Positions 31,998 through 52,349 of a stretch of 64,000 nucleotides of DNA are shown here, one piece after another. Location of the stretch: assembly GCA_037440925.1 (NCBI GenBank), contig JBBITF010000006.1:1-64000 (forward strand), in the 5' to 3' direction. The notes below the pieces were generated by a model that searched no databases, had not been told where the DNA came from, and saw nothing but the letters and a program-made list of their open reading frames with translations. Both the position numbers and the translations under genes were made by a program. Within the stretch, counting starts at the first letter, position 1. The number at the start of each line of letters is the position of its first letter. The DNA is from Chloroflexota bacterium. Its GTDB lineage: Bacteria > Chloroflexota > Anaerolineae > Anaerolineales > Villigracilaceae.

Positions 31998-32207
31998 ATG
32001 AGCGACGAAGTGACGGAGGAACTGAAGAATCAAATCGTTGAATTCTTCAAACAAAAAGGGAAGATGATGACCCATCGTGATGTTGCCAAAGGCCTTGACC
32101 TGGATCAAAAACTGGTCAAGAAGGCGCTGACAGAATTAGTCAATGCCGGCACATTGGAATTTACTTCCTTTGGCGGCGCCACGTTCATCAAACTCCCCGG
32201 CACATGA
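31998..32207 (+). CDS. dsrD: DsrD (small winged-helix protein of reductive-type dsr operons)
   Basis: 69 aa directly after dsrB. KKALTELVNAGTLEFTSFGGATFIKL matches the DsrD wH signature (K-K-x-L-x-x-L-V-N-x-x-L-E-(Y/F)-x-S-x-G). Confidence 0.7.
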   Translation: MSDEVTEELKNQIVEFFKQKGKMMTHRDVAKGLDLDQKLVKKALTELVNAGTLEFTSFGGATFIKLPGT

Positions 32208-32675: not shown

Positions 32676-33422
32676 ATGAGCACAAGCGATATTTTGTGGA
32701 CCCTGCTTTCCCTCTTTTTCATTGGTCTGGCTTATTTTGCAGCCTTTTCTTTCGTGGCAGGTTTGCTGTGGAAATTCTACGGTTACTTGCGCACTCCCAT
32801 GCCTTTACCTCATGCTGTGACACCTGCTCCTAAGACAGAAGGGGGAGCCGTCTTACGCGTGTTAGGAGATGTCACCCTCTTCTCCAACCTGTTCAAAGCC
32901 GATAAATGGTTGTGGGGAGGTGCGTGGCTCTTCCATGTTGCCTTGGCTGCGGTTTTATTCCGTCACTTGCGTTATTTTACTTACCCCGTGCCTGGACTGG
33001 TCCTATACATGGAATCGGTGGCGCTATTCTTTGGCAGTTTGCTGGGGGCGGCTGCCTTGTTCCTGTTTTGGCGGCGGCTGGCTTTGCCGCGCACACTCTA
33101 TATTTCTAATATCCCCGATTATTTTGCCCTGGCTTTGTTGGGCGTGATTGCCGGCAGTGGCCTGATGGTGAATTACTGGTTGCGCGTCAATATCGTAGAT
33201 GTCAAAGGCTTTATTTTGGGATTGATGACTTTCCATCCTGTCGAAGTACCTCATCATCCCTTGTTCCTCTTGCATTTACTGGCCGTCCTGATTTTGATGA
33301 TTTACTTCCCTTTCAGCAAGTTGCTCCATGCAGGCGGTCTGATTTTCAGCCCCTCGCGTCATCAGCCTTTTCAGGTGCAGGTGCGCGGCAAGCGTTATAT
33401 CAATCCAGTTGACCGTTATTGA
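32676..33422 (+). CDS. dsrM: DsrM (NarI-like diheme b membrane subunit)
   Basis: 248 aa, 5-6 TM. Conserved His in TM helices (FHVALAAVLFRHL; HHPLFLLHLL). Position and size match DsrM/HdrE. Confidence 0.8.
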   Translation: MSTSDILWTLLSLFFIGLAYFAAFSFVAGLLWKFYGYLRTPMPLPHAVTPAPKTEGGAVLRVLGDVTLFSNLFKADKWLWGGAWLFHVALAAVLFRHLRYFTYPVPGLVLYMESVALFFGSLLGAAALFLFWRRLALPRTLYISNIPDYFALALLGVIAGSGLMVNYWLRVNIVDVKGFILGLMTFHPVEVPHHPLFLLHLLAVLILMIYFPFSKLLHAGGLIFSPSRHQPFQVQVRGKRYINPVDRY

Positions 33423-33433
33423 GAGAATAACCT

Positions 33434-34879
33434 ATGTCGAAATTCGATGAGACTCCGATTGTCAAAGACCCGGCAGTAAATGGCGTCTTGCGCCCGCCCA
33501 AACTCCGCGAACACGCTTCGGCAGAGGTGCAGTGTTATCCGAGCAAGCCCAAAGATACTTCGGCCATTGATTTGCCGACCGAATTGGTGCCGGATTGGAA
33601 AGAGCGTGCCATTGCCAGATTGGGCGAGTTGTTGGAAAAGAACCAGGCCTTGCGCGTCTACATGGACATCTGTGTGCGCTGCGGCGCCTGCACCGACAAA
33701 TGCCAGTTCTTCCTGGGGACGGGCGACCCGCAGAACTTCCCGGTGGCGCGCGCGGAACTGCTGCGAAAAGTCTATCGCCGCTACTTTACGCCGGCCGGTC
33801 TCTTCCCAGACCTGGGAGAGGCCGCCGATTTAGACGAAGAGATGCTCCAGAAGTGGTACACCTACTTCTACCAATGCTCCGAATGCCGCCGCTGTTCGGT
33901 CTTTTGCCCGTATGGCATAGATACTGCCGAAATTACCATTGCCGCGCGCGAGATCATGGCCTCGATTGGTGTCTCGACCAAATACATCACGGAAGTTGTG
34001 GCAAAGGTCTATGCTACTGGCAACAATCTGGGCATTCCGCCGGCTGCCTGGAAGGACAACTGCGAATTTCTCGAAGAGGATGTGCAGGCGGATACCGGCC
34101 TGCCTATCCGCTTCCCAGTCGATGAGAAAGGCGCCGAAGTTCTGCTGGTGCCGCCCTCGGCCGATAACTTTGCCAATACTGACACCATGATTGGCTATGG
34201 CAAACTCTTCCATTTCTTGGGCGTCAGTTGGACAACCAGCACCTACTGTAATGAAGGCGGTAACTTTGGCCTGTTCTTGAATTTTGCCAACTTGAAAAAA
34301 GTCAACCGCCGCATTCTGGATGCCGCCCGCGAATTGGGCGTCAAGACCATTATCTGGGGTGAGTGTGGACATGCCTGGCGGGCAGGCATTATGACGCCTT
34401 CGCTCAATGGCCCGATGGATGATTTCGATCCGCCTTATCCGTACCATATTAGCCAGTATATCGTTGACATGCTGCACAAAGGCGCTTTCGAGGGCCACAT
34501 AGACAAGTCGGCCAATGACCAGTATCTTGTCACCTATCATGACCCGTGCAATTCTGCGCGCGCGGGCTACCTCATCGAAGAACCGCGTGAGATCATCCGC
34601 GCCGTTTGTAACCGCTTTGTCGAAATGCCAGAAGGCACCATCCGCGAAAAGACTTTTTGCTGCGGCGCAGGCAACGGCCTGTTGACGGATGAGATTATGC
34701 CCATCCGCATGGCGGGCGGCAAACCGCGCGCCATGGCCGTCAAGCACACCGGCGCCAATTACCTGGCCACTGTATGTGCAATTTGCAAGGCGCAATTGCC
34801 CGAATCCATGCACTATTGGCAGGTGCCGGTCAAGGTGGGTGGCGTGATTGACTTGCTGGCGAACGCTCTCAAATTCTAG
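33434..34879 (+). CDS. dsrK: DsrK (HdrD-like CCG-domain Fe-S protein)
   Basis: Two ferredoxin Cys clusters (CVRCGACTDKC; CSECRRCSVFCP). Two CCG motifs (YHDPC...CCGAGNG). Confidence 0.85.
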   Translation: MSKFDETPIVKDPAVNGVLRPPKLREHASAEVQCYPSKPKDTSAIDLPTELVPDWKERAIARLGELLEKNQALRVYMDICVRCGACTDKCQFFLGTGDPQNFPVARAELLRKVYRRYFTPAGLFPDLGEAADLDEEMLQKWYTYFYQCSECRRCSVFCPYGIDTAEITIAAREIMASIGVSTKYITEVVAKVYATGNNLGIPPAAWKDNCEFLEEDVQADTGLPIRFPVDEKGAEVLLVPPSADNFANTDTMIGYGKLFHFLGVSWTTSTYCNEGGNFGLFLNFANLKKVNRRILDAARELGVKTIIWGECGHAWRAGIMTPSLNGPMDDFDPPYPYHISQYIVDMLHKGAFEGHIDKSANDQYLVTYHDPCNSARAGYLIEEPREIIRAVCNRFVEMPEGTIREKTFCCGAGNGLLTDEIMPIRMAGGKPRAMAVKHTGANYLATVCAICKAQLPESMHYWQVPVKVGGVIDLLANALKF

Positions 34880-34894
34880 CCCTTGGAGACAGCC

Positions 34895-35197
34895 ATGCGC
34901 AAAGTAGCCTTGTCTCTCGTTGTATTCGGAATTCTGCTCTTGACGGTCCTCTTTTATCCGCGCTATGTGGAGAAACCCGTCAAGGACGGTGAAGGGCCGT
35001 TGGCGATTTACCTTGACCCCAGCCTGCCGGCGCCTGAATATCACAGCCCCTTAGACTGGTGGAAACGGAATCACAAGACGATCGTCAATCGCGGCGACCT
35101 GGACAGGCGCGATTGCCTGCAATGCCATGACCCGGCCACCTCTTGCAACAATTGTCACGCTTATGTGGGCGCGGCTGAGATTGTCGTTGCCCCCTAA
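34895..35197 (+). CDS. Membrane-anchored diheme cytochrome c
   Basis: ATG 34895 (GGAGA RBS). N-terminal TM anchor. Two CxxCH motifs (CLQCH, CNNCH). 100 aa. Confidence 0.65.
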   Translation: MRKVALSLVVFGILLLTVLFYPRYVEKPVKDGEGPLAIYLDPSLPAPEYHSPLDWWKRNHKTIVNRGDLDRRDCLQCHDPATSCNNCHAYVGAAEIVVAP

Positions 35198-35659
35198 ATG
35201 GTGAGCGCTATGACGGATACTTCTGTTTCCTCTCCTAAACCTTCCATTTTCTCCCGCCGCCGCCAGTTTATTCAACTGGGCTTCTTGACGGTGGCAGCCG
35301 CCTGGCTGGGAACATGGCTGCAAGCGCGTCTCTTCCCGGCCGCCAGCGCCAGCCAGGAAGCTGCGCCGGTCTCTTTTCCATTGAGCGACTTGCCGGTTGG
35401 CGGAGCCAAAGCCATTACGTATGGCGGCATTCCTGTATTGGTATTGCGCACCCCGCAGAGTCTCCGCGCCTTCTCGTTGATTTGCACGCACCTGGGCTGT
35501 ATTGTGGAATGGCAAGATAACAAGAAGGAATTTTATTGCCCTTGTCACGATGGCCGCTATGATGAATTTGGCGATGTGTTGGCCGGCCCCCCGCCCATTC
35601 CGTTGGAGCAATTTGCCGTGCGCATCGAGGGCGAACAAGTCATCGTCGGCGAGGCTTGA
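35198..35659 (+). CDS. TAT-exported Rieske [2Fe-2S] protein
   Basis: Twin-arginine motif SRRRQFIQ. Rieske boxes CTHLGC and CPCHDG. TAAATG overlap with upstream gene. Confidence 0.8.
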   Translation: MVSAMTDTSVSSPKPSIFSRRRQFIQLGFLTVAAAWLGTWLQARLFPAASASQEAAPVSFPLSDLPVGGAKAITYGGIPVLVLRTPQSLRAFSLICTHLGCIVEWQDNKKEFYCPCHDGRYDEFGDVLAGPPPIPLEQFAVRIEGEQVIVGEA

Positions 35660-35674
35660 GGCAGGAGAATGAAC

Positions 35675-36049
35675 ATGAAACGTTTTCTAATTTTCTTCGG
35701 TTCACTGCTTGTGACTGTGGCGTTGCTGTTGGCCCTCTTGCCCGCTGCTACGGCCCAAGCCCTTCCCGAATATTCAGCGCAGACCGGGGAACCCTGCGCC
35801 TCTTGTCACATCAGCCCCTCGGGCGGCGGCCCCCGCGGCCCGCGCGGGCAGGCCTGGGTAGCCTCCGGCAAACCCGGCGCCGTGCCGGATACGCTCCAGG
35901 CGCTCGAATTGCTGGGCGTCGAATTGAGCGTGGATCCGGCCTATTTTACGGCAACAGGTTTCGAGGTCCAGGAACCGGAAGCGCTGCAGGTCGCTCCGGC
36001 CCAGAGCGTGCGCTTGTACCGTTGGTTGAGTCAATATGATGGCAATTAG
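35675..36049 (+). CDS. Secreted monoheme cytochrome c
   Basis: Signal peptide and a single CASCH motif. ATG 35675 preferred over 35669 because of AGGAGA RBS spacing. Confidence 0.65.
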   Translation: MKRFLIFFGSLLVTVALLLALLPAATAQALPEYSAQTGEPCASCHISPSGGGPRGPRGQAWVASGKPGAVPDTLQALELLGVELSVDPAYFTATGFEVQEPEALQVAPAQSVRLYRWLSQYDGN

Positions 36050-36080: not shown

Positions 36081-38450
36081 ATGGAAAACTTCCCCTCTCA
36101 GACTCCTCCCTCAGAACTTTCCCGTCGTGATTTCATCAAATTTGGCGCCGCTGCCGCCATCGCCGGCGTTGGACTGAACGCTTTGCAGCCAGCGCAGCAG
36201 GCTACCTCGGTGCAAGCGGCGGTGGGTGAAGAGACGATTGTTAAAACGACATGCGCCTTGTGCCCCTCAGGCTGCGGCCTGGATGTGCGCGTGGTGAACG
36301 GCAAGGCGGTGAAAGTGGAAGGCAACCCGCTGCACCCGCTCAACCAGGGCGTATGCTGCCTGCGGGGACAGACCTCGTTGGAGGTGCTGTATAGCCCAGA
36401 GCGCATCCAACGCCCGCGCGTCCAGATGGGCGAGCGCGGTTCGGGCGATTGGAAAGAAATCTCGTGGGACGAGGCGCTTGAACTGGCGGCTGGCAAACTC
36501 GGTGAACTGCGCGCCGCTGGAAAGCCTCATAGCGTTGCGCTCATGCATGGCGAACTGCGCGGGCAAATGCGCCAGACGGTGCAGCGTTTCATGCGCGCCT
36601 ATGGCTCGCCGAATGTCATTTCGCGCGAGAGTTTGGGCGAAGGCGCGGCCCGTATGGCTTTATGGCTTTCACAAGGCGTAAACGCGCTGCCGGTCTACGA
36701 CATCAACAACGCCAATTATGTGTTGACCTTTGGGGGCAACCTGCTCGAATCCAGCCGCAACTTGATTGGCTATCTGGGCGCGACGGCTTTCATGCGGCGC
36801 GGACGCCCACAGCGCGGCAAACTGGTGGCCGTCCACCCGCGCCTTTCTCTGACCGGCATCAAGGCCGACGAGTGGGTGCCAATCCGCCCTGGCACGTATG
36901 GCGCGCTGGCTTTGGGCATGGCCAATGTCATCATCAACAGCAAACTATATGACGAAGCCTTCGTGCGCGACTTTACCTTTGGCTTCGAGGATTTCGAGGA
37001 CGCCGAGGGGACGTTGCACAAAGGCTTCAAGTCGCTGGTGTTGGAAACCTATACCCTCGAGCGCGTCTCGGCTATTACGGGCGTCTCTACCGATAAGATT
37101 GCCCGCATTGCGGGCGAATTTGCCACCAACCGCCCGGCGGTCGCCATGCTGCCCACCGAGGCGGGCGAACTCTCTAGCGGCAATGCGCTGTACACGGCGC
37201 TGGCCGTCCATGCCTTGAATGCCCTGGTTGGCTCGATAGACGTCAAGGGCGGCGTCCTCTTGCAGCGCTTCCCTAAATTGGCCGACTGGCCTGACTACAC
37301 CCTCGATGCGACAGCCCGCCTGGGAGAAAGCCGCGAGCGCATAGACGGGGCCGGCTCCCAATTCCCCTTGGCGCTATCGGCCTATCAGAATGTGCCAGAG
37401 CGCATCCTGGAGGGCAAGCCTTACCCCATCGAGGCCCTCTTCTTGCTGAACGCCAACCCGCTCTACGACCTGCCCAATGGCGGGCGTACCCTGGAAGCCT
37501 TGCAAAAAGTACCTTTTGTGGTCAGTTTTGCCTCCACCCTCGACGAAAGCGCGGCCTATGCCGACCTGATTTTGCCGGCCAGCACCTTCCTAGAAGTGTG
37601 GGGCGACGATTACCTGGAAGGCACGGGCTATGCGGGCATCTCCCTGCGCCAGCCGGCTGTTGCGCCGCTCCACGATACGCGCAATCCCGGCGACGTGCTG
37701 CTCGACCTGGCGCACCGCATCGGAGGTAATCTGGCAAAAGCCTTCCCCTGGGAAACCTACCAAGACCTGATCATGCAGCGCCTGTCTACCCTGGATTGGG
37801 AGAAATTGCAGGCCAACGGCAACTGGTCCGAACTGGTCTATTTCAACGCCCAACCCGGCAGCCCCGCCTGGAGCGAGGTGGTCGGACGTGACCGCTTGAA
37901 CGCTCCCAAAGATGGACGCTTCGACTTCTTCTCGCGCGAACTCTTCGCCCTGCTCGCTTCGGACTCGGACTTGGCCTGCTTGCCCCACTTCGAGATTCCC
38001 CCCGCCCTGGCCGACACTGCCGAGGGCGCCCTCGACTATCCTTTCCTGCTGGTCGTACAGCCGCTCATCACCCAGTCGCAGCAATGGCAAGGCATCGTCC
38101 CCACCTTGCAGGAGAGTTACGGCTTGCAAGGGCATGTCAAGTGGGACAGTTGGGTAGAAATCAGCCAGAAGGCAGCCGAAGCCCTCCACCTCGAGGATGG
38201 GCAGCGCGTGTGGGTAGAATCGCCGCTCGACCGCGTGCAGGCCACCGTTAGGGTATATGCTGGCATCTGGCCGAATGCCGTCTTCCTGCCGCCTGGACAG
38301 GGCCATCACACCTTTGTGCGCTGGGGCCGCAAATCTGAGCAGAACATGGTCGTCGGCGCCAACCCGAATGTTCTGAGTTTGTTTACGAGCGAGCCGTTGA
38401 GCGGACTGGCCGTAGCCGGCCCCACCCGCGTCCGTATTTATCCGGTTTGA
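36081..38450 (+). CDS. Molybdopterin (Mo-bisPGD) oxidoreductase catalytic subunit, PsrA/PhsA/TtrA-like, TAT-exported
   Basis: RRDFIKFGAAAA twin-arginine signal. FS0 [4Fe-4S] motif CALCPSGC...GVCCLRG. 789 aa, domain order typical of CISM A subunits. Confidence 0.8.
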   Translation: MENFPSQTPPSELSRRDFIKFGAAAAIAGVGLNALQPAQQATSVQAAVGEETIVKTTCALCPSGCGLDVRVVNGKAVKVEGNPLHPLNQGVCCLRGQTSLEVLYSPERIQRPRVQMGERGSGDWKEISWDEALELAAGKLGELRAAGKPHSVALMHGELRGQMRQTVQRFMRAYGSPNVISRESLGEGAARMALWLSQGVNALPVYDINNANYVLTFGGNLLESSRNLIGYLGATAFMRRGRPQRGKLVAVHPRLSLTGIKADEWVPIRPGTYGALALGMANVIINSKLYDEAFVRDFTFGFEDFEDAEGTLHKGFKSLVLETYTLERVSAITGVSTDKIARIAGEFATNRPAVAMLPTEAGELSSGNALYTALAVHALNALVGSIDVKGGVLLQRFPKLADWPDYTLDATARLGESRERIDGAGSQFPLALSAYQNVPERILEGKPYPIEALFLLNANPLYDLPNGGRTLEALQKVPFVVSFASTLDESAAYADLILPASTFLEVWGDDYLEGTGYAGISLRQPAVAPLHDTRNPGDVLLDLAHRIGGNLAKAFPWETYQDLIMQRLSTLDWEKLQANGNWSELVYFNAQPGSPAWSEVVGRDRLNAPKDGRFDFFSRELFALLASDSDLACLPHFEIPPALADTAEGALDYPFLLVVQPLITQSQQWQGIVPTLQESYGLQGHVKWDSWVEISQKAAEALHLEDGQRVWVESPLDRVQATVRVYAGIWPNAVFLPPGQGHHTFVRWGRKSEQNMVVGANPNVLSLFTSEPLSGLAVAGPTRVRIYPV

Positions 38451-38477: not shown

Positions 38478-39164
38478 ATGCCCCGCTGGGGAATGGTCAT
38501 TGACCTGGACAAATGCTTTGCCTGCCAGAGCTGCACCGCAGCCTGCCGCATGGAAAACAACACGCCTGTGGCCGGAAAGAACCAGGCCGATATGGGGCGC
38601 GCCATCCTGTGGAACGAGGTCTTGCCGTTCATAGAAGGCGAGTATCCCAATATCCACACCACCATGTTGCCGCGCCCGTGTATGCACTGCGACAACCCAC
38701 CCTGCGTTAAAGTCTGCCCGGTGCAGGCGACTTACAAAAACGAAGAAGGCATCGTGCTGGTGAACTACGATCGCTGTATTGGCTGCCGCATGTGCACTGT
38801 GGCTTGCCCTTATGCCGTGCGTTACTTCAACTGGTACCCCCCCGAATGGCCCGAGGAACTGAAAGCGCACTTGAATCCAGAACCGGAAGTGCAGCCTCGT
38901 CCTAAAGGCGTGGTCGAAAAATGTACCTTCTGCTTCCAGCGTTTGCGCAAAGCGCGTGAAGAAGCCGATGCAGAAGGTCGTCCTTTCAACGCCACTGACT
39001 ACACCCCTGCCTGCGTGCAAACCTGCACCGGCCACGCCCGCTACTTTGGCGACCTGGATGACCCGAACAGCCTGGTCTCTAAACTGGCGCATAGCCCGCG
39101 CGCCTTCCGTATGTTCGAAGAACTTGGCACACAGCCCAAAGTCTATTACTTGAAGCAAGGGTGA
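38478..39164 (+). CDS. 4x[4Fe-4S] ferredoxin-type electron-transfer subunit (PsrB/DsrO/NrfC-like)
   Basis: Four Cys clusters (CFACQSCTAAC; CMHCDNPPCVKVCP; CIGCRMCTVACP; CTFCFQR...CVQTC). No own signal peptide, consistent with TAT hitch-hiking on the A subunit. Confidence 0.8.
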   Translation: MPRWGMVIDLDKCFACQSCTAACRMENNTPVAGKNQADMGRAILWNEVLPFIEGEYPNIHTTMLPRPCMHCDNPPCVKVCPVQATYKNEEGIVLVNYDRCIGCRMCTVACPYAVRYFNWYPPEWPEELKAHLNPEPEVQPRPKGVVEKCTFCFQRLRKAREEADAEGRPFNATDYTPACVQTCTGHARYFGDLDDPNSLVSKLAHSPRAFRMFEELGTQPKVYYLKQG

Positions 39165-39168
39165 TGAT

Positions 39169-40497
39169 ATGGAACCCAAGAATCAAAACGTACAGCAAAT
39201 CCTTGCTCCCGTGCGCCGCGTTTCGGCTGGCGATTACCTGCTGTGGGGCGTCTTGCTTGCCTTGTTGTTGACCGGCCTGGGCGCCTGGACGTGGCAATTC
39301 ATCGAGGGCTTGGGCATCACCGGCATGAACCGCCCGGTCTATTGGGGCGTATACATTACCAACTTCGTTTTCTTCATCGGCCTGGCGCATTCCGGCACCT
39401 TCATCTCGGCCATCTTGCGCATCGCCGGGCAGAGTTGGCGCGCCCCGCTCACCCGCGCTGCCGAAGCCATCACGCTTTTCAGCCTGCCCTTCGGTGCTGG
39501 CTCCATCATTATTGATATGGGGCACCCCGAGCGCATCCTCAATGTCATTTTCTATGGACGTTACCAGTCGCCCATCCTGTGGGATGTGACAGCCGTCAGC
39601 CTGTATATGCTCTCCAGCATCATCTTCTTCTACTTCTCGCTCATCCCCGACATTGCGATTTGCCGCGACCGCCTCACCGACGCTCCGCGCTGGCAGCGCC
39701 GCATGTACCAAATCCTGGCTCTGGGTTGGAAGCACCATCCTGAGCAATATCGCCGTCTGGAAAAAGTGCTGGATGGTATGGCCGTTTTCATGACCATGTT
39801 GGTCGTCACCGTTCACACTGTGGTTTCCTGGCTGTTTGGCATGACCGTCCAACCTGGCTGGCATACCGCCTTGATCGGGCCGTTCTTCCTGTTGGGCGCC
39901 ATCCTATCGGGAACGGCGGCGGTGGTGATCACCTTGGCCATCCTGCGCAAGGTCTATCATCTGGAAAATGTCTTGCATGTCGGCCTGTTCAACTCTTTGC
40001 GCAAACTGTTGATTACCTTTGTCCTGGGCTGGCTGTACATGATGATCGCCGAGCATCTCACCATTGGTTATAGCAGCATGACCGAAGAGATGGTCGTCCT
40101 CAACGACAAATTCAGCGGCACCTTCTCGTTGATTTTCTGGAGCATGGCTACCTTCGTGTTTGGTCTTCCTTTGCTCATCTTCCTCTTCAAAGGCAAGAAC
40201 AATATCGGTTGGATGGTGTTTGCCTGTGTCCTCATCAATATTGGCATGTGGCTGGAGCGTTACATTGTCATCATCCCTACCGAGGTTAGCCCGCGCATGT
40301 TGCATGTCATGGGACAGGGACACTACCTCCCCCAACTGCCTGAAATCCTCATCACGATTGCCTGTTTCGCTGGCCTCATCCTGCTCTACGCGGTCTTTAC
40401 TCGTTTCTTCCCCATTGTTCCCATCTGGGAGACGGCTCAGGAACTGCCCGGCCACGCGCATTCTCAGCCGGCTCCGGCAGCCGCAGCCAGCGATTAG
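39169..40497 (+). CDS. NrfD/PsrC-family polytopic membrane quinone-interacting subunit
   Basis: 442 aa with about 10 TM helices, NrfD-like (DsrP/PsrC/ActC) organisation. 4-nt gap after the FeS gene. Confidence 0.75.
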   Translation: MEPKNQNVQQILAPVRRVSAGDYLLWGVLLALLLTGLGAWTWQFIEGLGITGMNRPVYWGVYITNFVFFIGLAHSGTFISAILRIAGQSWRAPLTRAAEAITLFSLPFGAGSIIIDMGHPERILNVIFYGRYQSPILWDVTAVSLYMLSSIIFFYFSLIPDIAICRDRLTDAPRWQRRMYQILALGWKHHPEQYRRLEKVLDGMAVFMTMLVVTVHTVVSWLFGMTVQPGWHTALIGPFFLLGAILSGTAAVVITLAILRKVYHLENVLHVGLFNSLRKLLITFVLGWLYMMIAEHLTIGYSSMTEEMVVLNDKFSGTFSLIFWSMATFVFGLPLLIFLFKGKNNIGWMVFACVLINIGMWLERYIVIIPTEVSPRMLHVMGQGHYLPQLPEILITIACFAGLILLYAVFTRFFPIVPIWETAQELPGHAHSQPAPAAAASD

Positions 40498-40515: not shown

Positions 40516-40704
40516 ATGAACATTGGCGGTTTGGTTCACGCATATTTCGACAATGCCGGCCCGGGCGGAGTCTTTGTCTTGCTGGTTGTCGGCGTTGCCT
40601 GCACTACCTACTACCTCCTGGCCCGCTGGTTCGTAGCCGGCGGTAGAACAGAGAGCCAGGCAGTTCCTTCTACCGATGAACAACCTGTGAGCATGGACGA
40701 ATGA
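40516..40704 (+). CDS. Small single-TM membrane protein
   Basis: 62 aa. ATGA overlap with the downstream gene. Hydrophobic core GVFVLLVVGVACTTYYLLA. Confidence 0.4.
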   Translation: MNIGGLVHAYFDNAGPGGVFVLLVVGVACTTYYLLARWFVAGGRTESQAVPSTDEQPVSMDE

Positions 40705-42791
40705 AACGACGAATTCTGCTTCCCTCCCTGGTCTTCCTGGCGGTCCTGACGCTGGCCGTCGGCTCCGTCTCCGCTTCCTCCCTCGACTTCAGCCTGCCTG
40801 CCTCGGCCGAAGGAGAGACTCTCGTCTCCGGCAATTACTGCGCCTCCTGTCATCTGACCGATGACCCGCGCCTGGCGTCTGCCACGGCTTGGAAAGGCGG
40901 CATCCAAAGCAAAGTCAACTCGCCCTGCCCGGCAGCCATCAAAATACACGAAGAACTATATTACACCGAACGGTTGCTGCTCATGATCGAACGCGCCGAA
41001 AACGCAGTTGGCCCCTTGCCCGAAAAGAGCCAGGCTCGTTTGGAGGACTATACCCAGCGTTACAGCCGTATGCTCGATACGCCTGTCGGCAGCCTGGACG
41101 CTTTCGTCAGTGAAGCCCAGTCAACTCGTTATCAGTTGAACAAGGCCTATGCTGCGCTCAATCAAATGGCGCAAGACGCCAAACAGCGCACAATCTTGAC
41201 GTATGCGGCGGCGATTACCTTGATTGTGCTTGGCTCATTGGCCTGGGGCGTGTACAACTCCCGCGCGCTGGCCTCTGGAAAGGTGAGCCGATCTTGGGGG
41301 CTATTCTGGCGTGTGCTGTTTATCGTGGCTGTTGTGGCGTTCTTTACCTTGCCTTTCTTCCGTGTGCCGGCCGAAGAGGTGGTGATGACCACTGCCGAAC
41401 AGCAGGAAGCCCAGGCAACCCTCGATGCCGCTCAACGCGCAGCCGACGCTGCCGACCGTTCGCAGGCGCGCGCCTGGATGTTAGCCCGCGTTGCGGCTGC
41501 CTATGCCGAAATGGACGCCGCCCAAGCCCAGGCTATCCTGGATGAAGCGCTGACCTCGCTCGACGTAGCCCGCAAGAACGAAGAAGCCCTGTGGGGGCAA
41601 AGCCTGGTCGTGCAAGAAGTGACGGTTGGCACCAAAATCGAAATGGAATCGGCCGGCCTCATCACCGCCGACCTGAACGCTGCCCGCGCCCGCGCCTGGG
41701 CCTTGCCGCTGGTTGCCCGGCAGTGGAACGCCCTCGATCCAATCAAAGCCGCCGCCCTCTTACAGGCCGAACAGGACGCCCTGATTGGCCAAGAAGGCCT
41801 CTACCGTGATTTACAATTGCGCGCCCTATCGCTGGCCTGGGTCGAAGTGAATCCTTCCAAGGCCGCCCCTGCTGCCGCCCAAATACAGGACGCTTCCCTG
41901 CGCGCCTGGACCTTCCGTGAACTGGCGGACCTGACCCACAACCCCTCACTCTATGACAAAGCCCTCCAGGCTGCGCGTGAAATCACGGACCCTGTCCAGA
42001 AAGCGCGCGCCCTGCGAGAGATTGCCCACTCTTCTGGCAAGAGCGCCCTTTTCGAGGAAGCCCTGACCGCGCTAGATGGCGTGACCGACCCCGCTTTGGC
42101 CTATGCCCTCAGCGACCTGGCCGCTGCCTGGGGCAACGCTTCTCTGGTCGAAAGAATCGCCTACCCCGATGCCCGCGCCAGCGCCTTGCTGCGCATGGGA
42201 GAATACCCCTCCGCTTGGGAGGCGGCGGCAGGCATCGCTGATCCTTACGAACAGGCGCGCGCCCAAGCCGCCATTGCTTCTGCCTGGGGCAATGCCGATG
42301 CCGCCATGCAGATTGCTGTCCCCTTATACCGCGATTTGGCATTGCGCGATGTCATCCGAAAAACGGGAAATACGTCACTGGCAGAGGCAATTACCTCCAA
42401 GTACTATAAAGTCCAGGCTCTAACTGCTCTAGGCGAGACCGAATCTGCCCTCCAAGTAGCCGCCGACCTGGGCGAAACCTACCCCTTGGTTGATTTGGCT
42501 GTCCATTTGTCCGCCTCCAATCCGCAGGCGGCGTTGGCCTTGGTCGAGCAGATGAAGCGCGAAAGCGACAAAGCCATTGCCTTGCAGGCTATTGCTGTTG
42601 CCTCGCAGGACCCGTCGCTCATCGAACAGGCGCAGGGCATGGCACTGGCCGCCCGCGTGCGCGGCGACTCGCTGGCCCCGGCCCAGGCTTTGCTCGATCT
42701 TGCAAATGCCCTTCTGGAAGTAGATGTCAAATACGCAGAAGCAGCCTTTCGTCAGGCGTATGAAGCGGCGCAGCGCATTGCAACCAAATGA
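40701..42791 (+). CDS. Monoheme cytochrome c fused to two TM helices and a ~450-aa Ala-rich alpha-helical repeat domain
   Basis: Signal peptide. CASCH heme motif at residues 48-52. TM helices near residues 175-230. Then about 31-aa repeats (…DP..QKARALREIAHS…; …DPALAYALSDLAAAWGN…; …DPYEQARAQAAIASAWGN…). Confidence 0.6.
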   Translation: MKRRILLPSLVFLAVLTLAVGSVSASSLDFSLPASAEGETLVSGNYCASCHLTDDPRLASATAWKGGIQSKVNSPCPAAIKIHEELYYTERLLLMIERAENAVGPLPEKSQARLEDYTQRYSRMLDTPVGSLDAFVSEAQSTRYQLNKAYAALNQMAQDAKQRTILTYAAAITLIVLGSLAWGVYNSRALASGKVSRSWGLFWRVLFIVAVVAFFTLPFFRVPAEEVVMTTAEQQEAQATLDAAQRAADAADRSQARAWMLARVAAAYAEMDAAQAQAILDEALTSLDVARKNEEALWGQSLVVQEVTVGTKIEMESAGLITADLNAARARAWALPLVARQWNALDPIKAAALLQAEQDALIGQEGLYRDLQLRALSLAWVEVNPSKAAPAAAQIQDASLRAWTFRELADLTHNPSLYDKALQAAREITDPVQKARALREIAHSSGKSALFEEALTALDGVTDPALAYALSDLAAAWGNASLVERIAYPDARASALLRMGEYPSAWEAAAGIADPYEQARAQAAIASAWGNADAAMQIAVPLYRDLALRDVIRKTGNTSLAEAITSKYYKVQALTALGETESALQVAADLGETYPLVDLAVHLSASNPQAALALVEQMKRESDKAIALQAIAVASQDPSLIEQAQGMALAARVRGDSLAPAQALLDLANALLEVDVKYAEAAFRQAYEAAQRIATK

Positions 42792-43215: not shown

Positions 43216-43416
43216 ATGTTCATCGTAACCATTGATATCCAAAAATGTAAAGCCTGCGGTGATTGCGTGGAAAATTGCCCTCAACAGGCCATTGCCATCA
43301 CCGAAGAAGGCGGCAAAAAGTATGCCATGTTTACCGGTAGTCCCGATGATTGTATTGGCTGCTTATCCTGCGAATCTTCTTGTGAAGAAGGCGCCATTAC
43401 CGTTACCGAGTACTAA
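43216..43416 (+). CDS. 2x[4Fe-4S] ferredoxin
   Basis: 66 aa. CKACGDCVENCP and CIGCLSCESSCE motifs. Confidence 0.8.
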   Translation: MFIVTIDIQKCKACGDCVENCPQQAIAITEEGGKKYAMFTGSPDDCIGCLSCESSCEEGAITVTEY

Positions 43417-43463
43417 TCGCGCTGTTTTCTCCTCTTACGCTAACGGCTGGATGTATTCCCCTG

Positions 43464-44888
43464 ATGACTGCTCGAACCCGTCATGCGCCTCGTCTGGTCA
43501 TTGCGGCGCCCCAGGGTCGAAGTGGAAAAACCACCCTGACCTTGGGATTGTGCGCCGCATTCAAAGCGCGCGCGCTGACCATCCAGCCCTACAAAAAAGG
43601 ACCCGATTACATTGATCCCTCCTGGCTGAGTGAAGCCGCTGGAACCCTCTGCCGTTCCCTAGACCCTTTCTTTTACGAAAAGCCCGAAGAACTCTTACGG
43701 GCTTTTCTGCGCTCTGCTCCTCAAGATGGGGTGAGCCTGATCGAAGGCAATCACGGCTTGTTTGACTCCTTCGATGAAAGCGGACGAGGTAGCACGGCTG
43801 CGGTTGCGCGCACGTTGCAGGCTCCCCTCCTGTTGGTGATCAATGCCGCCCGCATGGGGCGCAGCGCCGCGGCCATCGTGCATGGCTGTCAAACCTTCGA
43901 GCCAGAAACGAACATCGCCGGCGTGGTTCTGAACAACGTAGCGCAAGGTCGCCACGAGGCCCGTATGCGCCAGGCCATTGAAAGTCGCTGCGGTGTGCCT
44001 GTATTGGGCGCCATTCCACGCGACGAAACCCTGACCATCCCCGACCGTCACCTGGGATTGGTGCCTCGCGCCGAACAAGACGCGCTTCTTCCCGCCATCA
44101 CAGCCTGCCGGCAGACTATCGAGCGCTACCTCGACCTCGATGCTGTCCTGGCTATAGCCCGGGCTGCGCCTGCTTTACCCGCTCCCTCTCCGGCCTCCTC
44201 CGCGGCCCAGCCGGTCTCGCATCGGCCGCTCATCGGCGTCCTGCGCGACCGTGCCTTTACCTTCTACTACCCTGAAAATTTAGAAGCCCTGGAAGAAGCC
44301 GGTGCCGACCTGCTCTTCCTGGACGCTTTGCGTGACGCCGAATTGCCCCCTGTAGACGCCCTCTACATCGGCGGCGGCTTCCCCGAAATATTCATGGACG
44401 AGTTGTCTGCCAACGTTTCTCTGCGCCGCGCCATCCGCGAAGCCATCGAAAACGACTTGCCGGTCTACGCCGAATGCGGCGGCCTGATGTACCTCTCCCA
44501 GCGCATTGTGTGGGGCGAAAAATCGGCCGAGATGGTGGGCGCCTTGCCCTGCGAAATCGAAATGACCTCCAAACCCCAGGGACATGGCTACGTAACTGCC
44601 CAGGTGGAGGCCGAGAATCCTTTTTTCTCGCCGGGCCTGCTCTTGCGTGGACATGAGTTCCACAACTCGCGGCTTGTAATGCTCCCTGGCAACCGCCTTG
44701 CAACGGCTTATCGCCTCTTGCGCGGCAATGGAGTAGGCGATGGCCGCGATGGGCTTCTTTACCGTAACACATTGGCTTCTTACACTCATTTGCATTCTGG
44801 CGGAGCGCCTGACTGGGCCGTTGGCCTGGTTCATCGGGCGCAGGTTTATCGAGAAAACCGCCTACAAGCAGAAATGGATAACAGATGA
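43464..44888 (+). CDS. dsrN: DsrN (cobyrinic acid a,c-diamide synthase homologue; siroheme amidase)
   Basis: CbiA/CobB architecture with N-terminal P-loop (APQGRSGKTT) and C-terminal glutamine amidotransferase domain (YAECGGLMYL). Located in the dsr locus. Confidence 0.75.
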   Translation: MTARTRHAPRLVIAAPQGRSGKTTLTLGLCAAFKARALTIQPYKKGPDYIDPSWLSEAAGTLCRSLDPFFYEKPEELLRAFLRSAPQDGVSLIEGNHGLFDSFDESGRGSTAAVARTLQAPLLLVINAARMGRSAAAIVHGCQTFEPETNIAGVVLNNVAQGRHEARMRQAIESRCGVPVLGAIPRDETLTIPDRHLGLVPRAEQDALLPAITACRQTIERYLDLDAVLAIARAAPALPAPSPASSAAQPVSHRPLIGVLRDRAFTFYYPENLEALEEAGADLLFLDALRDAELPPVDALYIGGGFPEIFMDELSANVSLRRAIREAIENDLPVYAECGGLMYLSQRIVWGEKSAEMVGALPCEIEMTSKPQGHGYVTAQVEAENPFFSPGLLLRGHEFHNSRLVMLPGNRLATAYRLLRGNGVGDGRDGLLYRNTLASYTHLHSGGAPDWAVGLVHRAQVYRENRLQAEMDNR

Positions 44889-49014: not shown

Positions 49015-50820
49015 CTACTCGCCCGTCAAACCGGCCAGCGTCCCATTCAGGTCTTCCTGGTAGGTGGTGTGACAGGTGCTGCAAAGCGCCAGTTGGGGCT
49101 TGTTTTGTTCGACGGCTTGCTGTTGGTGGCAGGTCAGGCAGCGGCCGTGCATGGCGTCTTTGTAACCGGGCGCCATGGCTTCAAATACAGTTTGGCCTTC
49201 GGCAGGCGTCATGGTCTCATGGCAATCCTGGCAGATCGCTGACGTTAACCGAATGTGTTCCTGTGCATGGCATTCCTGGCAACTTGCGTTCCCGCCCAGT
49301 TCCTGCTGGTGCAGGCTGTGATCGAAGATCGAAGCCGGGCGATAATAATCGGTGTGACAGGCCGAACATGCCGTCGCTTCATCGTTTGGGCGGTCCAGGT
49401 GATGGCAAACCTGGCAGTTGCTCTCGCCGGTGGCCTTATTCATCAAACGTTCCTGGTGCTCCAGATGGGGAAAATTGACTACATAGCCGCTGCGGTTGCC
49501 GTCTATTTGCAGCGGTTCCCAGCCTCTAGCCTCCATGACCGGCGTGGCAGGCGGCTGCGCTTTGACAATCAACACCGGCACCGCCAGCGCCATGACGAAG
49601 ACGGCCAGACGGCTGCGATGCGCGACGATGGCCCTCAGCCACGAGCCTTGACCGGCCAACCAGGTCGCCCTGGCGGGCGCCGCCGCTTCTTCCTCCGCTT
49701 CGGCCTGCTTGCCGAACAATTGCAGATTCTCGGCGAAGAACAGGTACAGCAAGAACGCCGCCGACGGGATGGCGAAGGCGATGGCCGTTTCGCCCAGCGA
49801 AGGGGTATAGGCTGTACCCGCCGCCCGGTACATGGTGAACATGCTCAGCGACATGCGCTGGCTCATGATGCCCAGAATGCCCAGCACGGCGCCGGTCAGC
49901 AGGCCCTCGCGCCTCTCTCGTGTCTTTTTGATGCTGAACAGGACAATGGGAAGCACCCCGCACAACAGGATTTCGGCCAGGAATAAAATGCTTTGCCAGG
50001 AACCATCCAGCGCGCCGGGCAGCACCCCGCGCAGAACCTGGTCGCCCAGGCGCAGCAGCAAGTACAGTCCCAGCGGCAGGGGCGTCCACTTTCCCAAAGT
50101 GGTCAGGATGTCGAAGTGCATCCCGCGTTTGAACCAGCGCTCGACAAAGAAGCCTTCTACAATTAACGCCATCATGCCGGCTGCAATGGCGCTGGTGAAG
50201 AACAGGTAAGGCAGCCAGGGACTATACCACAGCGGGTGGACGCGATGCGGCATGATGAGGAACAGCGATCCCAGCGAGGACTGGTGCAAAGTAGATAGAA
50301 CGATGCCGGCAATCACCAGCGGCAGGGTGAACTTGTGAAGCCAGTGCAGCAGGGTCTTGAAGAGCGGGTGGCGGAACCAGGGATGTTCCAGGATGACCGG
50401 AGAAAACTCCAGCACCAGCACCGAGAAATACAGCATCACACACCAGGCAATCTCGAACATGACCGAGTGATGCTGCCAACTGATGATGGGCATGTAAATG
50501 TGCCAGGGCAGGCCCAGGTCGAAAATCAGGGAGACGATGAATGAGCCGTAGCCCAGCAGAGCCACCAAAATCGCCCGCCGCAAGATGGGGCGGAAGAATT
50601 CCAGGTGGAAAATGTACACCAGTGCCGCCAGGGTGAAGCCGCCGCCGGCGATGGCGACGAACACCAGTTTGAAAGCGATCCACAGCCCCCAGGGGGCAGA
50701 GTCATTGAGTCCGGTAGCGGCCCCAAGTCCGGCAGCGAAGCGAATGATAGAGGCCACCAGGCCCGCCAGGGCGATGGCCCACAATCCATCTTTGATCCAA
50801 GTGCGCGTAGTCGTGTTCAC
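49015..50820 (-). CDS. NrfD-family membrane subunit fused to a C-terminal hexaheme cytochrome c domain
   Basis: About 400-aa NrfD/HmcC/DsrP-like N-terminal part (≥8 TM). Then six CxxCH motifs (CQVCH, CSACH, CQECH, CQDCH, CLTCH, CSTCH) in the last ~160 aa. Confidence 0.7.
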   Translation of the reverse strand: MNTTTRTWIKDGLWAIALAGLVASIIRFAAGLGAATGLNDSAPWGLWIAFKLVFVAIAGGGFTLAALVYIFHLEFFRPILRRAILVALLGYGSFIVSLIFDLGLPWHIYMPIISWQHHSVMFEIAWCVMLYFSVLVLEFSPVILEHPWFRHPLFKTLLHWLHKFTLPLVIAGIVLSTLHQSSLGSLFLIMPHRVHPLWYSPWLPYLFFTSAIAAGMMALIVEGFFVERWFKRGMHFDILTTLGKWTPLPLGLYLLLRLGDQVLRGVLPGALDGSWQSILFLAEILLCGVLPIVLFSIKKTRERREGLLTGAVLGILGIMSQRMSLSMFTMYRAAGTAYTPSLGETAIAFAIPSAAFLLYLFFAENLQLFGKQAEAEEEAAAPARATWLAGQGSWLRAIVAHRSRLAVFVMALAVPVLIVKAQPPATPVMEARGWEPLQIDGNRSGYVVNFPHLEHQERLMNKATGESNCQVCHHLDRPNDEATACSACHTDYYRPASIFDHSLHQQELGGNASCQECHAQEHIRLTSAICQDCHETMTPAEGQTVFEAMAPGYKDAMHGRCLTCHQQQAVEQNKPQLALCSTCHTTYQEDLNGTLAGLTGE

Positions 50821-50821
50821 G

Positions 50822-51613
50822 TTATTGCTCCTCGGTGGGTTGACTCTGGCGCGCTTTTTGCGCCGCCTGTGCCTGCATACGCCGTTCGATAATCCAGAAC
50901 AGTCCGGTCATCAAACCCGCGGTGCCAATGGTAATGGCGGGTACCTTGCTTAGCCACTCCCAGGTCAGTTCTGGCATGGGCTTCTGGATAGGAGCGCCGT
51001 GATAGCCCAGGAAATCTAACGGAACGTGGGAAATGTACATTACGGCTGTGCCGCCGACTTCCTGCGCGCCATAGACGATGGGCAGATATTTGTGCGGGGC
51101 TTCCTGGATGCGCTGGTTGGCGATTTCGAGCAGTTCGCTCCTTTCGCCAAAGGTCAGCACCTTTTCAGGGCAGGTTTCTACACAGGCGGGCAGTTGTCCC
51201 TGTTGGATGCGGCCATAGCATAACGTACATTTCTGCACCAACGGCGCGGGGGAGTCCCATTCGTAGCGCGGAATGCCAAAGGGACAGGCCATCATGCAAT
51301 AGCGGCAGCCCATACACTTTTGGCTATCGTAGATCACTGCCCCTTCGGGCGTGCGGTACATGGCGCCGACCGGGCAGGCCGAGACGCAGGCCGGTTCCAG
51401 ACAGTGGCGACAGAATTTTCGCACGAAGCCGCCTTCGGGGCTTTCGACAATGGACGACCAGCGGCGCGCCGACAAGCCATCGGGAGATTGCTGCGGCAGG
51501 TATTCGAGCGCGCCCAGGTGGTTGACTTCGGCGCAGGCCTCCACGCATTGATTACAACCCGTACAGCGGGTGACATCCACTAAAATACCAACTTGTTTTA
51601 TCGTGCCGCTCAT
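50822..51613 (-). CDS. 4x[4Fe-4S] ferredoxin-type subunit with C-terminal TM anchor (HmcB/DsrO-like)
   Basis: Cys clusters CTGCNQCVEAC; CRHCLEPACVSACP; CMGCRYCMMACP; CTLC...CVETCP. C-terminal helix VPAITIGTAGLMTGLFWII. Confidence 0.75.
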   Translation of the reverse strand: MSGTIKQVGILVDVTRCTGCNQCVEACAEVNHLGALEYLPQQSPDGLSARRWSSIVESPEGGFVRKFCRHCLEPACVSACPVGAMYRTPEGAVIYDSQKCMGCRYCMMACPFGIPRYEWDSPAPLVQKCTLCYGRIQQGQLPACVETCPEKVLTFGERSELLEIANQRIQEAPHKYLPIVYGAQEVGGTAVMYISHVPLDFLGYHGAPIQKPMPELTWEWLSKVPAITIGTAGLMTGLFWIIERRMQAQAAQKARQSQPTEEQ

Positions 51614-52314
51614 ATTTTCCTCCCTTCGGGGCCATGAAGCGCTTGCACGGCTTTGCTGCCGGCTTGTGGGACGAAGTGCCAGGCAATTTCTGTGCTGAGG
51701 CGGATGAGGGGGAAGAGGACACAGTGGGCGATTTTGGTGAATGGCGTGACGAGCAGAAGAGCCATTCCATTCAGCGTGTGGAACAGCATTAGGCCGTTGT
51801 AAGGGATGGGGTTCCAGGGCTGCCCGGCAATGTAGCCGGAGAGGAAGATGTTGAAAATGAGTAACAACAGCACATAGTCGGCTGTCTTGCTCAAACGCCG
51901 CGAGGCCGGAACATACAGCCTGAACAGCAGCAACAGGCTGACCCCGACGATGCTGATGAGGGTCAGCACGTCTAGCACCGGCTTCGAGATGGCAAACCAG
52001 GCAATCCCGATGTTGTCCTTCAGAATGTCCAGGTGATTACGCAGGAAGAGGGACACAACCAGGATGCCGACGTGTAAGCCAAAAGAGGCAAAACTATAAG
52101 CGGCGCGGTTACGGTGCAGGCGGTTGAAGGGGAACAGCCATGAGAATGTCTGCACGACGATCTGCCGCATAGGAAGGCGGCGATCGCCGGCGCGGCGGAT
52201 GGCTGTAACCATATCCCAAACGGTCAAGGCAACCAGCCGCAGCAATGCCAGCGCGACCAGCGTCGCTACAAAGAAAAAGGCAGGGCCTTTGGCAAGCATC
52301 AACCAGGTTGGCAT
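51610..52314 (-). CDS. NarI/HdrE-like diheme b membrane protein (DsrM paralogue)
   Basis: 234 aa, 5 TM. Conserved His in helices. 4-nt overlap with the downstream FeS gene. Confidence 0.65.
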   Translation of the reverse strand: MPTWLMLAKGPAFFFVATLVALALLRLVALTVWDMVTAIRRAGDRRLPMRQIVVQTFSWLFPFNRLHRNRAAYSFASFGLHVGILVVSLFLRNHLDILKDNIGIAWFAISKPVLDVLTLISIVGVSLLLLFRLYVPASRRLSKTADYVLLLLIFNIFLSGYIAGQPWNPIPYNGLMLFHTLNGMALLLVTPFTKIAHCVLFPLIRLSTEIAWHFVPQAGSKAVQALHGPEGRKI

Positions 52315-52349
52315 ATCGAAAAGAGCCTCCTACTCATTAAAGTTGGATA

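Follow-up and report, generated by a model that had tools for sequence, protein, structure and literature searches.

The 64,000-nucleotide stretch of contig JBBITF010000006.1 (positions 1 to 64,000, assembly GCA_037440925.1, a Chloroflexota bacterium of the Villigracilaceae; hereafter the window) carries a dsr gene cluster in which one gene encodes a protein of 696 amino acids (aa) (Table 1). This is a real, conserved and uncharacterised membrane protein of sulfite-reducing Chloroflexota, in which a predicted monoheme cytochrome c domain is joined to a transmembrane (TM) hairpin and a long α-solenoid. Membrane-anchored cytochrome c subunits of respiratory complexes are an already known kind of protein, but the fusion of a redox domain to a large extracytoplasmic solenoid is a rare case, and the architecture as a whole is new and unprecedented. 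In our judgement, the chances are about even that the protein is an outward-facing, stoichiometric subunit with redox and scaffold functions in a periplasmic electron-transfer arm linked to DsrMK.

Architecture and conservation of the 696-aa protein

The open reading frame (ORF) is intact, and the fusion of heme, membrane and repeat regions that the first-pass annotation had described proved to be genuine and conserved. Among 5.8 billion proteins searched, 233 homologues were found, nearly all of them full length. Among the best 120 of these, 107 were at least 680 aa long and 52–80% identical to the query, originating from metagenome-assembled genomes (MAGs) of Anaerolineales/Chloroflexota; all were annotated as hypothetical and none had a Pfam domain. 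The full-length close homologues span 687–711 aa, and more distant ones show approximately 30–35% identity. Moreover, a profile search against 1.84 billion representatives matched 645 proteins at E ≤ 1e-3, including divergent full-length members (700–770 aa) and relatives of approximately 900–1200 aa.

Searches of Pfam (E ≤ 0.01) and NCBIfam with the whole protein, the N-terminal domain (N-domain) and the solenoid returned no meaningful family; the best curated-family match, AgaZ, was judged spurious. Only chance matches (FlgJ, TON_1535 and apolipoprotein) were obtained when the protein and the N-domain profile were compared with PDB sequences. In addition, a literature search on the module (Anaerolineae, Desulfolinea, Rieske, NrfD and DsrMK) found no paper describing the protein or the module. 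The unannotated family can be recognised by its signature of a signal peptide, CxxCH, a conserved Cys, a three-helix stalk, a TM hairpin and a solenoid.

The N-terminus bears a hydrophobic stretch at about residues 3–27 (hydropathy peak at 3–30) with the cleavage-type motif VSA/SS, followed by CASCH at residues 47–51, which agrees with the earlier description of a signal peptide and a single heme site. No lipobox Cys follows the signal peptide. The protein has only three cysteines (residues 47, 50 and 76) and a single CxxCH. Specifically, C47, C50 and H51 do not vary among 78 family members, nine divergent members (28–47% identity) or 29 members of the superfamily drawn from Chloroflexota and Thermodesulfobacteriota. 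Among the 78 close homologues, N45, C47, C50, H51, C76, P77 and M95 are all invariant. Across the superfamily, the invariant positions of the N-domain are reduced to CxxCH, Cys76, whose equivalent stands 26–35 residues after CxxCH, and Arg143 in helix 3. No Met or second His is conserved across the superfamily in this domain, Met95 and His83 both being lost in distant members.

The conserved CxxCH, together with the predicted export of the heme domain, places the protein among the putative c-type cytochromes. Because Cys76 is the only conserved candidate for a distal ligand, the simplest reading suggested by these alignments is that His51 ligates the heme c proximally and Cys76 distally, a His/Cys pair also known from DsrJ, SoxA and TsdA. 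If this ligation holds, the protein would be a structurally unrelated addition to the few His/Cys cytochromes linked to sulfur metabolism.

Two TM helices had been placed near residues 175–230. Two helices do exist, although slightly more N-terminal, at residues 163–185 and 199–222. The loop between them (residues 185–199) has charges of +3/0, and the segment after the second helix has charges of +3/−7. Because a c-type heme domain must be exported, this charge pattern would put both the heme and the repeat domains outside. By the positive-inside rule, it supports a cytoplasmic hairpin loop and an extracytoplasmic repeat domain, in line with the periplasmic location predicted before.

An AlphaFold model built from an alignment of 78 sequences was all-α, with a mean predicted local distance difference test (pLDDT) score of 83.6 and a predicted template modelling score (pTM) of 0.80. 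Long helices cover residues 77–103, 108–126 and 132–191, the last of which enters the first TM helix and is followed by the second. The heme loop was poorly defined, as expected in a model without heme. When the N-domain was modelled on its own (pLDDT 78), confidence was again low at the heme loop, and the fold matches of this model were generic three-helix bundles only. After the second TM helix, approximately 24 alternating helices follow, with most 10-residue blocks at pLDDT >90; a fold search with the full model found generic solenoids only. The predicted structure of this region is a superhelix of tandem two-helix units, i.e., an α/α solenoid. In the solenoid, many Trp, Arg and Asp residues are invariant among the 78 close homologues, as would be consistent with specific binding surfaces.

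Alanine makes up 21% of the whole protein, and the C-terminal part (residues 232–696, 465 residues) is Ala-rich and all-helical. The first-pass annotation had described this part as Ala-rich repeats of roughly 31 aa with recurring AWGN elements. Helical repeats are indeed present, but they are divergent, have a period of 26–34 aa and contain AWGN only twice (at 476 and 528). Their BLOSUM autocorrelation is weak (best z = 3.1), and a profile-based comparison of units was needed, for which the family alignment was cut at the two-helix units of the AlphaFold model and the pieces were compared profile to profile. Related units scored 20–37, compared with a maximum of 12.3 for column-shuffled controls, and 28 of the 105 unit pairs scored above every shuffled control. 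The mutually related units are 397–429, 430–463, 464–487, 514–539, 540–565 and 620–657, with probabilities up to 96%.

The proposed assignment to the HEAT, PBS-lyase or TPR families was not borne out at the sequence level, as none of the curated TPR, HEAT, PBS-lyase and ARM repeat models in Pfam matched (E ≤ 0.01). A repeat flavour of the type A..I.DP..RA.AL..IA is common to the protein, to TON_1535 (PDB 3zpj; the match is not significant, E about 1) and to HEAT-like, TPR and PPR solenoids, and the C-terminal arrays of bacterial NB-ARC/NACHT STAND proteins are built of the same repeat unit. However, TON_1535-like and STAND solenoid proteins are cytoplasmic and have neither heme nor TM segments.

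Gene context and the proposed electron-transfer arm

The window cluster runs in the order YeiH-like, DsrA, DsrB, DsrD, DsrC, DsrM, DsrK, diheme cytochrome c, Rieske protein, 126-aa cytochrome, molybdopterin-oxidoreductase-like (Mo-like) subunit, iron-sulfur (FeS) subunit, NrfD subunit, 62-aa TM protein, 696-aa protein, DsrE-like, ferredoxin, DsrN-like and radical-SAM. The gene of interest had been said to end the module. It is the last of the membrane-complex genes, but the operon goes on 22 nt downstream with the DsrE-like gene, followed by those for the 66-aa ferredoxin, the DsrN-like and the radical-SAM proteins. The surrounding genes give no hint of a phage or defence origin, although no search was aimed at one.

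Thirty loci from GTDB species representatives, all of them Anaerolineales/Chloroflexota MAGs and including Ca. Desulfolinea nitratireducens, were compared. In every one of the 30 loci with sufficient flanks, the gene order from DsrAB through the 696-aa homologue to DsrE/DsrN was the same, the conserved arrangement being DsrAB-(D)-C-M-K, diheme c, Rieske, cytochrome c, Mo-like, FeS, NrfD, small TM protein and the 696-aa homologue. Homologues with only approximately 30–35% identity occupy the same module. Moreover, the small single-TM gene overlaps the start of the downstream gene by 4 nt (ATGA) in 24 of the 29 sources scanned, two of which (L001 and L026) are one contig; one further source has a 1-nt offset, and the gene calls of L034 show a short ORF at this place. 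The small TM proteins of loci L001–L036 are of two types (MDIGGLVHxFFxNAGPGG... and MxHWFFDTPxIGS...), which track two NrfD types (approximately 85% vs 43% identity to the window NrfD). This pairing points to a joint replacement of NrfD and the small TM protein, with the gene for the 696-aa protein being kept.

The Mo-like, FeS and NrfD proteins had been called PsrABC-like, which does not describe them well. The best NCBIfam scores of the FeS subunit were 267 bits for QrcC and 192 bits for DsrO, all Qrc model scores of the window proteins being below their cutoffs, and its PDB match was 6f0k_B (E = 5e-55); the best PDB match of the NrfD subunit was 6f0k_C (E = 4e-63). These are nearest to ActB2 and ActC of alternative complex III (ACIII). 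The Mo-like subunit gave ArrA and PsrA as best PDB matches and retains the FS0 four-Cys motif CxxCxxxC...C, but a Gly (RESLGEGA, residues ~181–188) stands opposite the Mo-ligand Cys of ArrA (SSVCAEA) and PsrA (VSLCTAP), and all 26 orthologues have G, A or S here instead of Cys. The subunit may be without cofactor, as ActB1/QrcB are, or may hold Mo without a protein ligand, as arsenite oxidase does. Arsenite oxidase, in which no protein residue ligates Mo, pairs with a Rieske protein. From these comparisons, the three neighbours look like a quinone module of the ACIII/Qrc/DsrOP type.

Homologues were also found in two other contexts. In L038 (1–16338), a Chloroflexota-type dsr locus, a 751-aa homologue stands directly after DsrD, DsrC, DsrM, DsrK, the diheme cytochrome c and the Rieske protein. 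Behind it come genes for a DsrL-like protein, for a complete complex of Rieske protein, cytochrome b and diheme c, for another DsrMK-like pair, and for a ferredoxin and DsrN. In MAGs of Thermodesulfobacteriota/Deltaproteobacteria, relatives of approximately 1200 aa share the N-terminal signature and the TM hairpin and have a longer solenoid. Their operon (L032, 1–13600; L033, 1–13534) encodes fumarase, DsrM-like, FeS, CCG, diheme c, Rieske, cytochrome b, SdhA/FrdA, an anchor, SdhB/FrdB and, last, the homologue; no dsr genes are present. The start of the ~1200-aa gene overlaps the SdhB/FrdB stop in the same way as the window gene overlaps that of the small TM protein. Unusually, these operons combine an HdrD-like module with a Rieske/cytochrome b complex and a succinate/fumarate oxidoreductase, and Tct tricarboxylate transporter genes come after the homologue.

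In all three contexts, one recognisable kind of diheme cytochrome c (signature GPGPL..APEYHxPL..CxxCH..SCxxCHxYVG) and one Rieske type recur, and a DsrM/K-like pair, a small diheme c and a Rieske protein accompany the homologue in all but one of the neighbourhoods examined. This recurrence indicates that the constant partners are the DsrM/K-like pair, the diheme c and the Rieske protein rather than the NrfD module. That the set of diheme c, Rieske protein, 696-aa homologue and DsrM/K-like core recurs in a second phylum in a non-sulfur context makes it a new and testable respiratory module.

For DsrMKJOP, a cryo-electron microscopy (cryo-EM) structure shows that quinol is oxidised at DsrP and that electrons pass through DsrO, DsrJ and DsrM to DsrK, DsrJ bridging DsrO and DsrM on the outer face and holding a Cys/His heme (bioRxiv 10.64898/2026.08.25.746951). 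How DsrMK is supplied with electrons without DsrJOP and what the periplasmic Dsr subunits do are still named as open questions in this 2026 preprint (bioRxiv 10.64898/2026.08.25.746951). The Anaerolineales putative sulfite/sulfate reducers, a widespread lineage that includes Ca. Desulfolinea, use other genes instead of DsrJOP: the diheme c, the Rieske protein, the monoheme c, the ACIII/Qrc-like trio of Mo-like, FeS and NrfD subunits, the small TM peptide and the 696-aa protein.

We propose that the 696-aa protein would be exported by Sec and, after removal of the signal peptide, would receive one c-type heme at C47/C50/H51, the chain continuing through the stalk and the TM hairpin with its cytoplasmic loop into a 465-residue solenoid displayed outside the membrane. 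The Anaerolineales complex would contain DsrM, DsrK, the TM-anchored diheme c, the Rieske protein, the 126-aa cytochrome, the Mo-like subunit, the ActB2/DsrO-like FeS subunit, the ActC/DsrP-like NrfD subunit, the 62-aa single-TM peptide and the 696-aa protein. By analogy with the DsrMKJOP structure, the NrfD subunit would oxidise menaquinol, the FeS clusters would relay electrons to the outer-face c-hemes and the Rieske centre, and the DsrM hemes would carry them to DsrK, where the DsrC trisulfide would be reduced. The 696-aa protein would contribute its heme as one link of this periplasmic wire of c-hemes and Rieske centre, and would clamp and organise the exported peripheral subunits with its hairpin, stalk and solenoid. 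A scaffold or tether role, as the first-pass annotation had suggested, is compatible with the α-solenoid fold, which is generic, with the strict synteny and with the translational coupling to the small TM subunit.

Several likenesses point to this placement. DsrJ is likewise a periplasmic, membrane-anchored c-type cytochrome encoded with DsrMK and has a Cys/His heme, as the 696-aa protein probably does, and its bridging of DsrO and DsrM is the role proposed for the 696-aa and diheme proteins together. However, DsrJ has three hemes and the 696-aa protein one, the latter adds a helical stalk fold, a TM hairpin and a 465-residue solenoid, and the gene position of DsrJ is held by the separate diheme cytochrome. 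In ACIII, the ActB/ActC core is surrounded by ActE, a monoheme c, ActD, a hairpin of two TM helices, and ActH, a periplasmic bundle of three long helices of about 30 residues that contacts ActA and ActB (PMC5928083). The 696-aa protein would unite analogues of all three, its stalk being a possible counterpart of the ActH bundle that stabilises the peripheral arm, with a solenoid in one polypeptide, and on these grounds it is proposed as a periplasmic-arm subunit feeding DsrM/DsrK. Its gene also sits after that for NrfD, as actD and actE do. The differences are that ActD has both termini in the cytoplasm and β-α-β motifs (PMC5928083), compared with an all-α protein with both termini predicted outside; that ActE is a His/Met lipoprotein, compared with a protein without a lipobox and without a superfamily-conserved Met; and that ACIII has neither a solenoid nor a Rieske protein. 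The window module further resembles QrcABCD in its Mo-enzyme-like subunit, perhaps cofactor-less, its FeS subunit (QrcC being the best NCBIfam match), its NrfD subunit, a membrane-anchored cytochrome c and the dissimilatory sulfite reduction of the organism; yet QrcA is a hexaheme cytochrome, and Qrc has no Rieske protein, small TM subunit or solenoid subunit.

A number of points weigh against this placement. Heme attachment, heme ligation and the physical association of the 696-aa protein with its neighbours are predictions from sequence. The protein has no sequence or fold similarity to DsrJ, ActD, ActE, ActH, TsdA/SoxA or cytochrome c1. Specifically, the DsrJ model NF038038 did not match the N-domain even at E ≤ 10, Pfam PF21342 (SoxA/TsdA) gave no match, no solved SoxA or TsdA chain was matched by the protein or the N-domain profile, and no sequence similarity to the ACIII chains 6f0k, 6btm, 6lod and 8k9e was found. 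No region of the protein, the hairpin included, co-varies with the NrfD and small-TM types; the within/between-group ratio of the second TM helix is only 1.14, which speaks neither for nor against a specific contact between the hairpin and NrfD. Co-occurrence with the genes formerly called PsrABC-like is strict in the Anaerolineales loci, but the L038 locus is without any Mo-like, FeS or NrfD gene, which means that docking to NrfD cannot be a universal role. One homologue (P0180) lies on a short contig outside any respiratory operon. Moreover, Met95 is invariant in the close family, and His/Met ligation in the window protein is possible from the alignments. Finally, mutation of the Cys ligand of DsrJ left growth unaffected (bioRxiv 10.64898/2026.08.25.746951), indicating that a His/Cys heme need not be functionally critical.

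Alternative explanations

Of all the neighbours, the Rieske protein is the one found most constantly in the three recurring contexts, and the L038 homologue follows the Rieske gene directly. Considering also that the topology (signal peptide, CxxCH near the N-terminus and TM anchor) is that of cytochrome c1, and that the Rieske/cytochrome b pair of L032 has no other obvious c1-type subunit, the 696-aa protein might be a cytochrome c1 analogue that accepts electrons from the Rieske protein and forms a quinol oxidase with DsrM, its solenoid docking the next acceptor; in Thermodesulfobacteriota, cytochrome b would take the place of DsrM. We regard this as unlikely. His/Cys hemes, the candidate type here, are normally too low in potential to take electrons from a Rieske centre, and the protein shows neither a class-I cytochrome fold nor similarity to c1. 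In addition, the Rieske protein has alternative partners in the diheme c and the 126-aa cytochrome, and L038 contains a full, separate bc complex that is equipped with a cytochrome c of its own.

A role in assembly or maturation, rather unlikely in our estimate, would make the protein a chaperone like CcmH, CcmI or NrfG, with the solenoid binding exported apo-subunits (cytochromes and TAT cargo) and the Cys-rich N-domain handling thiol or heme chemistry during assembly. The succession of a periplasmic domain with CxxC, two TM helices and a periplasmic helical-repeat domain would resemble the layout of E. coli CcmH/CcmI. The position as the last of the membrane-complex genes, the lack of co-variation with the NrfD type and the persistence of the protein where the NrfD module is absent would all suit such a factor. 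However, the invariant His51 completes a canonical heme-attachment CxxCH instead of a CxxC redox motif, the CcmH, CcmI, NrfG and TPR profiles gave no match, and the gene is embedded in a structural operon, where tight translational coupling and one copy per operon are typical of structural subunits.

With Cys76 as the only candidate for a distal ligand and a DsrE-like sulfur-transfer gene adjoining it in the dsr locus, the heme could also be catalytic. The protein would then act as a His/Cys heme enzyme like TsdA or SoxAX on periplasmic sulfur compounds (thiosulfate, polysulfide or protein persulfides), and its solenoid would bind a substrate carrier, an idea already raised in the first-pass annotation. 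The His/Cys hemes of TsdA and SoxAX are catalytic, according to work cited in bioRxiv 10.64898/2026.08.25.746951, and a cytochrome gene of the SoxA-TsdA type lies near one of the Thermodesulfobacteriota homologues. Nevertheless, we hold a catalytic role to be quite improbable, as the relatives in that phylum belong to an operon for fumarase, succinate/fumarate oxidoreductase and tricarboxylate transport without dsr genes, the 696-aa protein is not similar to SoxA or TsdA, and the His/Cys heme of DsrJ was found to be non-catalytic (bioRxiv 10.64898/2026.08.25.746951).

An equally speculative extension, to which we assign little probability, is that the five-protein core (DsrM-like b, DsrK/HdrD-like, diheme c, Rieske and 696-aa proteins) forms an unrecognised Rieske-dependent respiratory complex in which the oxidation of quinol is divided between two branches. 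Its outer Rieske/c-heme branch would end in the 696-aa protein as a c1-like, solenoid-docked terminal heme, and its inner b-heme/DsrK branch would drive DsrC trisulfide reduction at low potential; the Thermodesulfobacteriota core belongs to the fumarate/succinate-oxidoreductase operon. If true, a bc1-like bifurcation of this kind could account for the way in which organisms that lack DsrJOP drive the final step of sulfite reduction.

Apart from the high Ala content and a somewhat lower sequence entropy in the C-terminal part, nothing favours a frameshift or assembly fusion or a disordered, functionless low-complexity tail, and this explanation is refuted for practical purposes because of conservation and structure prediction: full-length homologues lie on hundreds of independent contigs, the GC content at third codon positions (GC3) is even across the whole gene, most of the solenoid is modelled at pLDDT >90, many invariant residues are not Ala, and the repeats are statistically real.

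Neighbouring genes and other features of the window

The coordinates of the 696-aa gene, its parts and other features are collected in Table 1. Among the neighbours, DsrK reached 526 bits with its NCBIfam model, above the cutoff, and DsrM reached 142 bits.

Table 1 Features of the window (positions are those of the 64,000-nucleotide stretch; TAT, twin-arginine translocation)
Feature	Positions	Strand	Basis or remark
DsrM (NarI-type cytochrome b) and DsrK (HdrD-like catalytic subunit)	32676..34879	+	NCBIfam
Membrane-anchored diheme cytochrome c (CLQCH, CNNCH)	34883..35197	+	DsrJ gene position
TAT-type Rieske [2Fe-2S] protein (CTHLGC and CPCHDG boxes)	35198..35659	+	Pfam Rieske
126-aa secreted monoheme cytochrome c (predicted; CASCH, residues 43–47)	35669..36049	+	Sequence; orthologues in 20 loci
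TAT-exported Mo-like subunit, FS0 motif, without Mo-ligand Cys	36081..38450	+	Pfam, NCBIfam
Four-cluster FeS subunit, nearest ACIII ActB2, QrcC, DsrO	38478..39164	+	NCBIfam, PDB
NrfD-family membrane subunit (442 aa), nearest ACIII ActC	39169..40497	+	Pfam NrfD
62-aa single-TM protein	40516..40704	+	Stop overlaps the next ATG (ATGA)
696-aa protein: predicted monoheme cytochrome c, TM hairpin, α-solenoid	40701..42791	+	ATG start, no internal stop
Sec-type signal peptide, predicted (residues 1–24)	40701..40772	+	Hydropathy; conserved SSVSASS consensus
Predicted heme c attachment motif C47-A-S-C50-H51	40839..40853	+	Invariant in the alignments
Cys76, candidate sixth (distal) heme ligand	40926..40928	+	Invariant across the superfamily
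Predicted periplasmic stalk of three long helices (residues 77–160)	40929..41180	+	Helix 3 continues into TM helix 1; invariant Arg143
TM helix 1 (residues 163–185), out to in	41187..41255	+	Hydropathy; kept in all relatives checked
TM helix 2 (residues 199–222), in to out	41295..41366	+	Hydropathy; flanking charges
Predicted extracytoplasmic right-handed α/α solenoid (residues 232–696)	41394..42788	+	About 12 two-helix units of 26–34 aa
601-aa HmcC-like NrfD protein fused to a C-terminal multiheme cytochrome c3 domain	49015-50820	−
HmcB-like FeS protein	50822-51613	−
HmcE-like protein	51610-52314	−
HmcF/DsrK-like protein	52350-53726	−

The heme domain of the 696-aa protein had been regarded as a paralogue of the 126-aa cytochrome. 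The pentapeptide CASCH is indeed present in both, but paralogy at the level of the domain was not supported. BLASTP aligned only 10 residues, around CASCH. With the signal peptides included, hhalign against a profile of the 126-aa cytochrome, built from 20 orthologues in related loci, gave a probability of 93.5%; with mature regions only, the probability was 31.6% over 26 columns (G-x-x-C-x-S-C-H...PR...W). The score of the mature regions (26.5, compared with a shuffled-control maximum of 17.8) is confined to GxxCxSCH..PR..W. The 126-aa cytochrome has no counterpart of Cys76, and the remainder of the two domains is unrelated. A common heme-attachment segment of approximately 26 residues is possible from these alignments.

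The 126-aa family has the signature ALPEYxxQTGEPCxSCHxSPSGGGPRGPRGQAW...YDGN, and its only conserved cysteines are those of the CxxCH pair. No obviously conserved Met or second His was seen in the 20 orthologues, and the sixth heme ligand may be supplied by a partner, as DsrO gives a His to DsrJ. The window Rieske protein is bc-like and has no adjoining cytochrome b gene.

A 69-aa DsrD is encoded at 31998..32207 between dsrB and dsrC, indicating a reductive-type Dsr system. Downstream of the 696-aa gene, the candidate orf127 (43232..43615) is probably spurious and was rejected as a gene, as it overlaps in another frame the gene for the 66-aa 2x[4Fe-4S] ferredoxin (43216..43416), which other loci also have at this place, flanked by the DsrE-like and DsrN-like genes. 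Between the 696-aa homologue and the DsrE-like gene, a second DsrM/K-like pair is present in several related loci but not in the window.

A second, Hmc-like membrane complex is encoded on the minus strand of the window (49015-53726). In addition, SecA (16645-20619) is unusually long (1324 aa), and its split Pfam matches imply large insertions.

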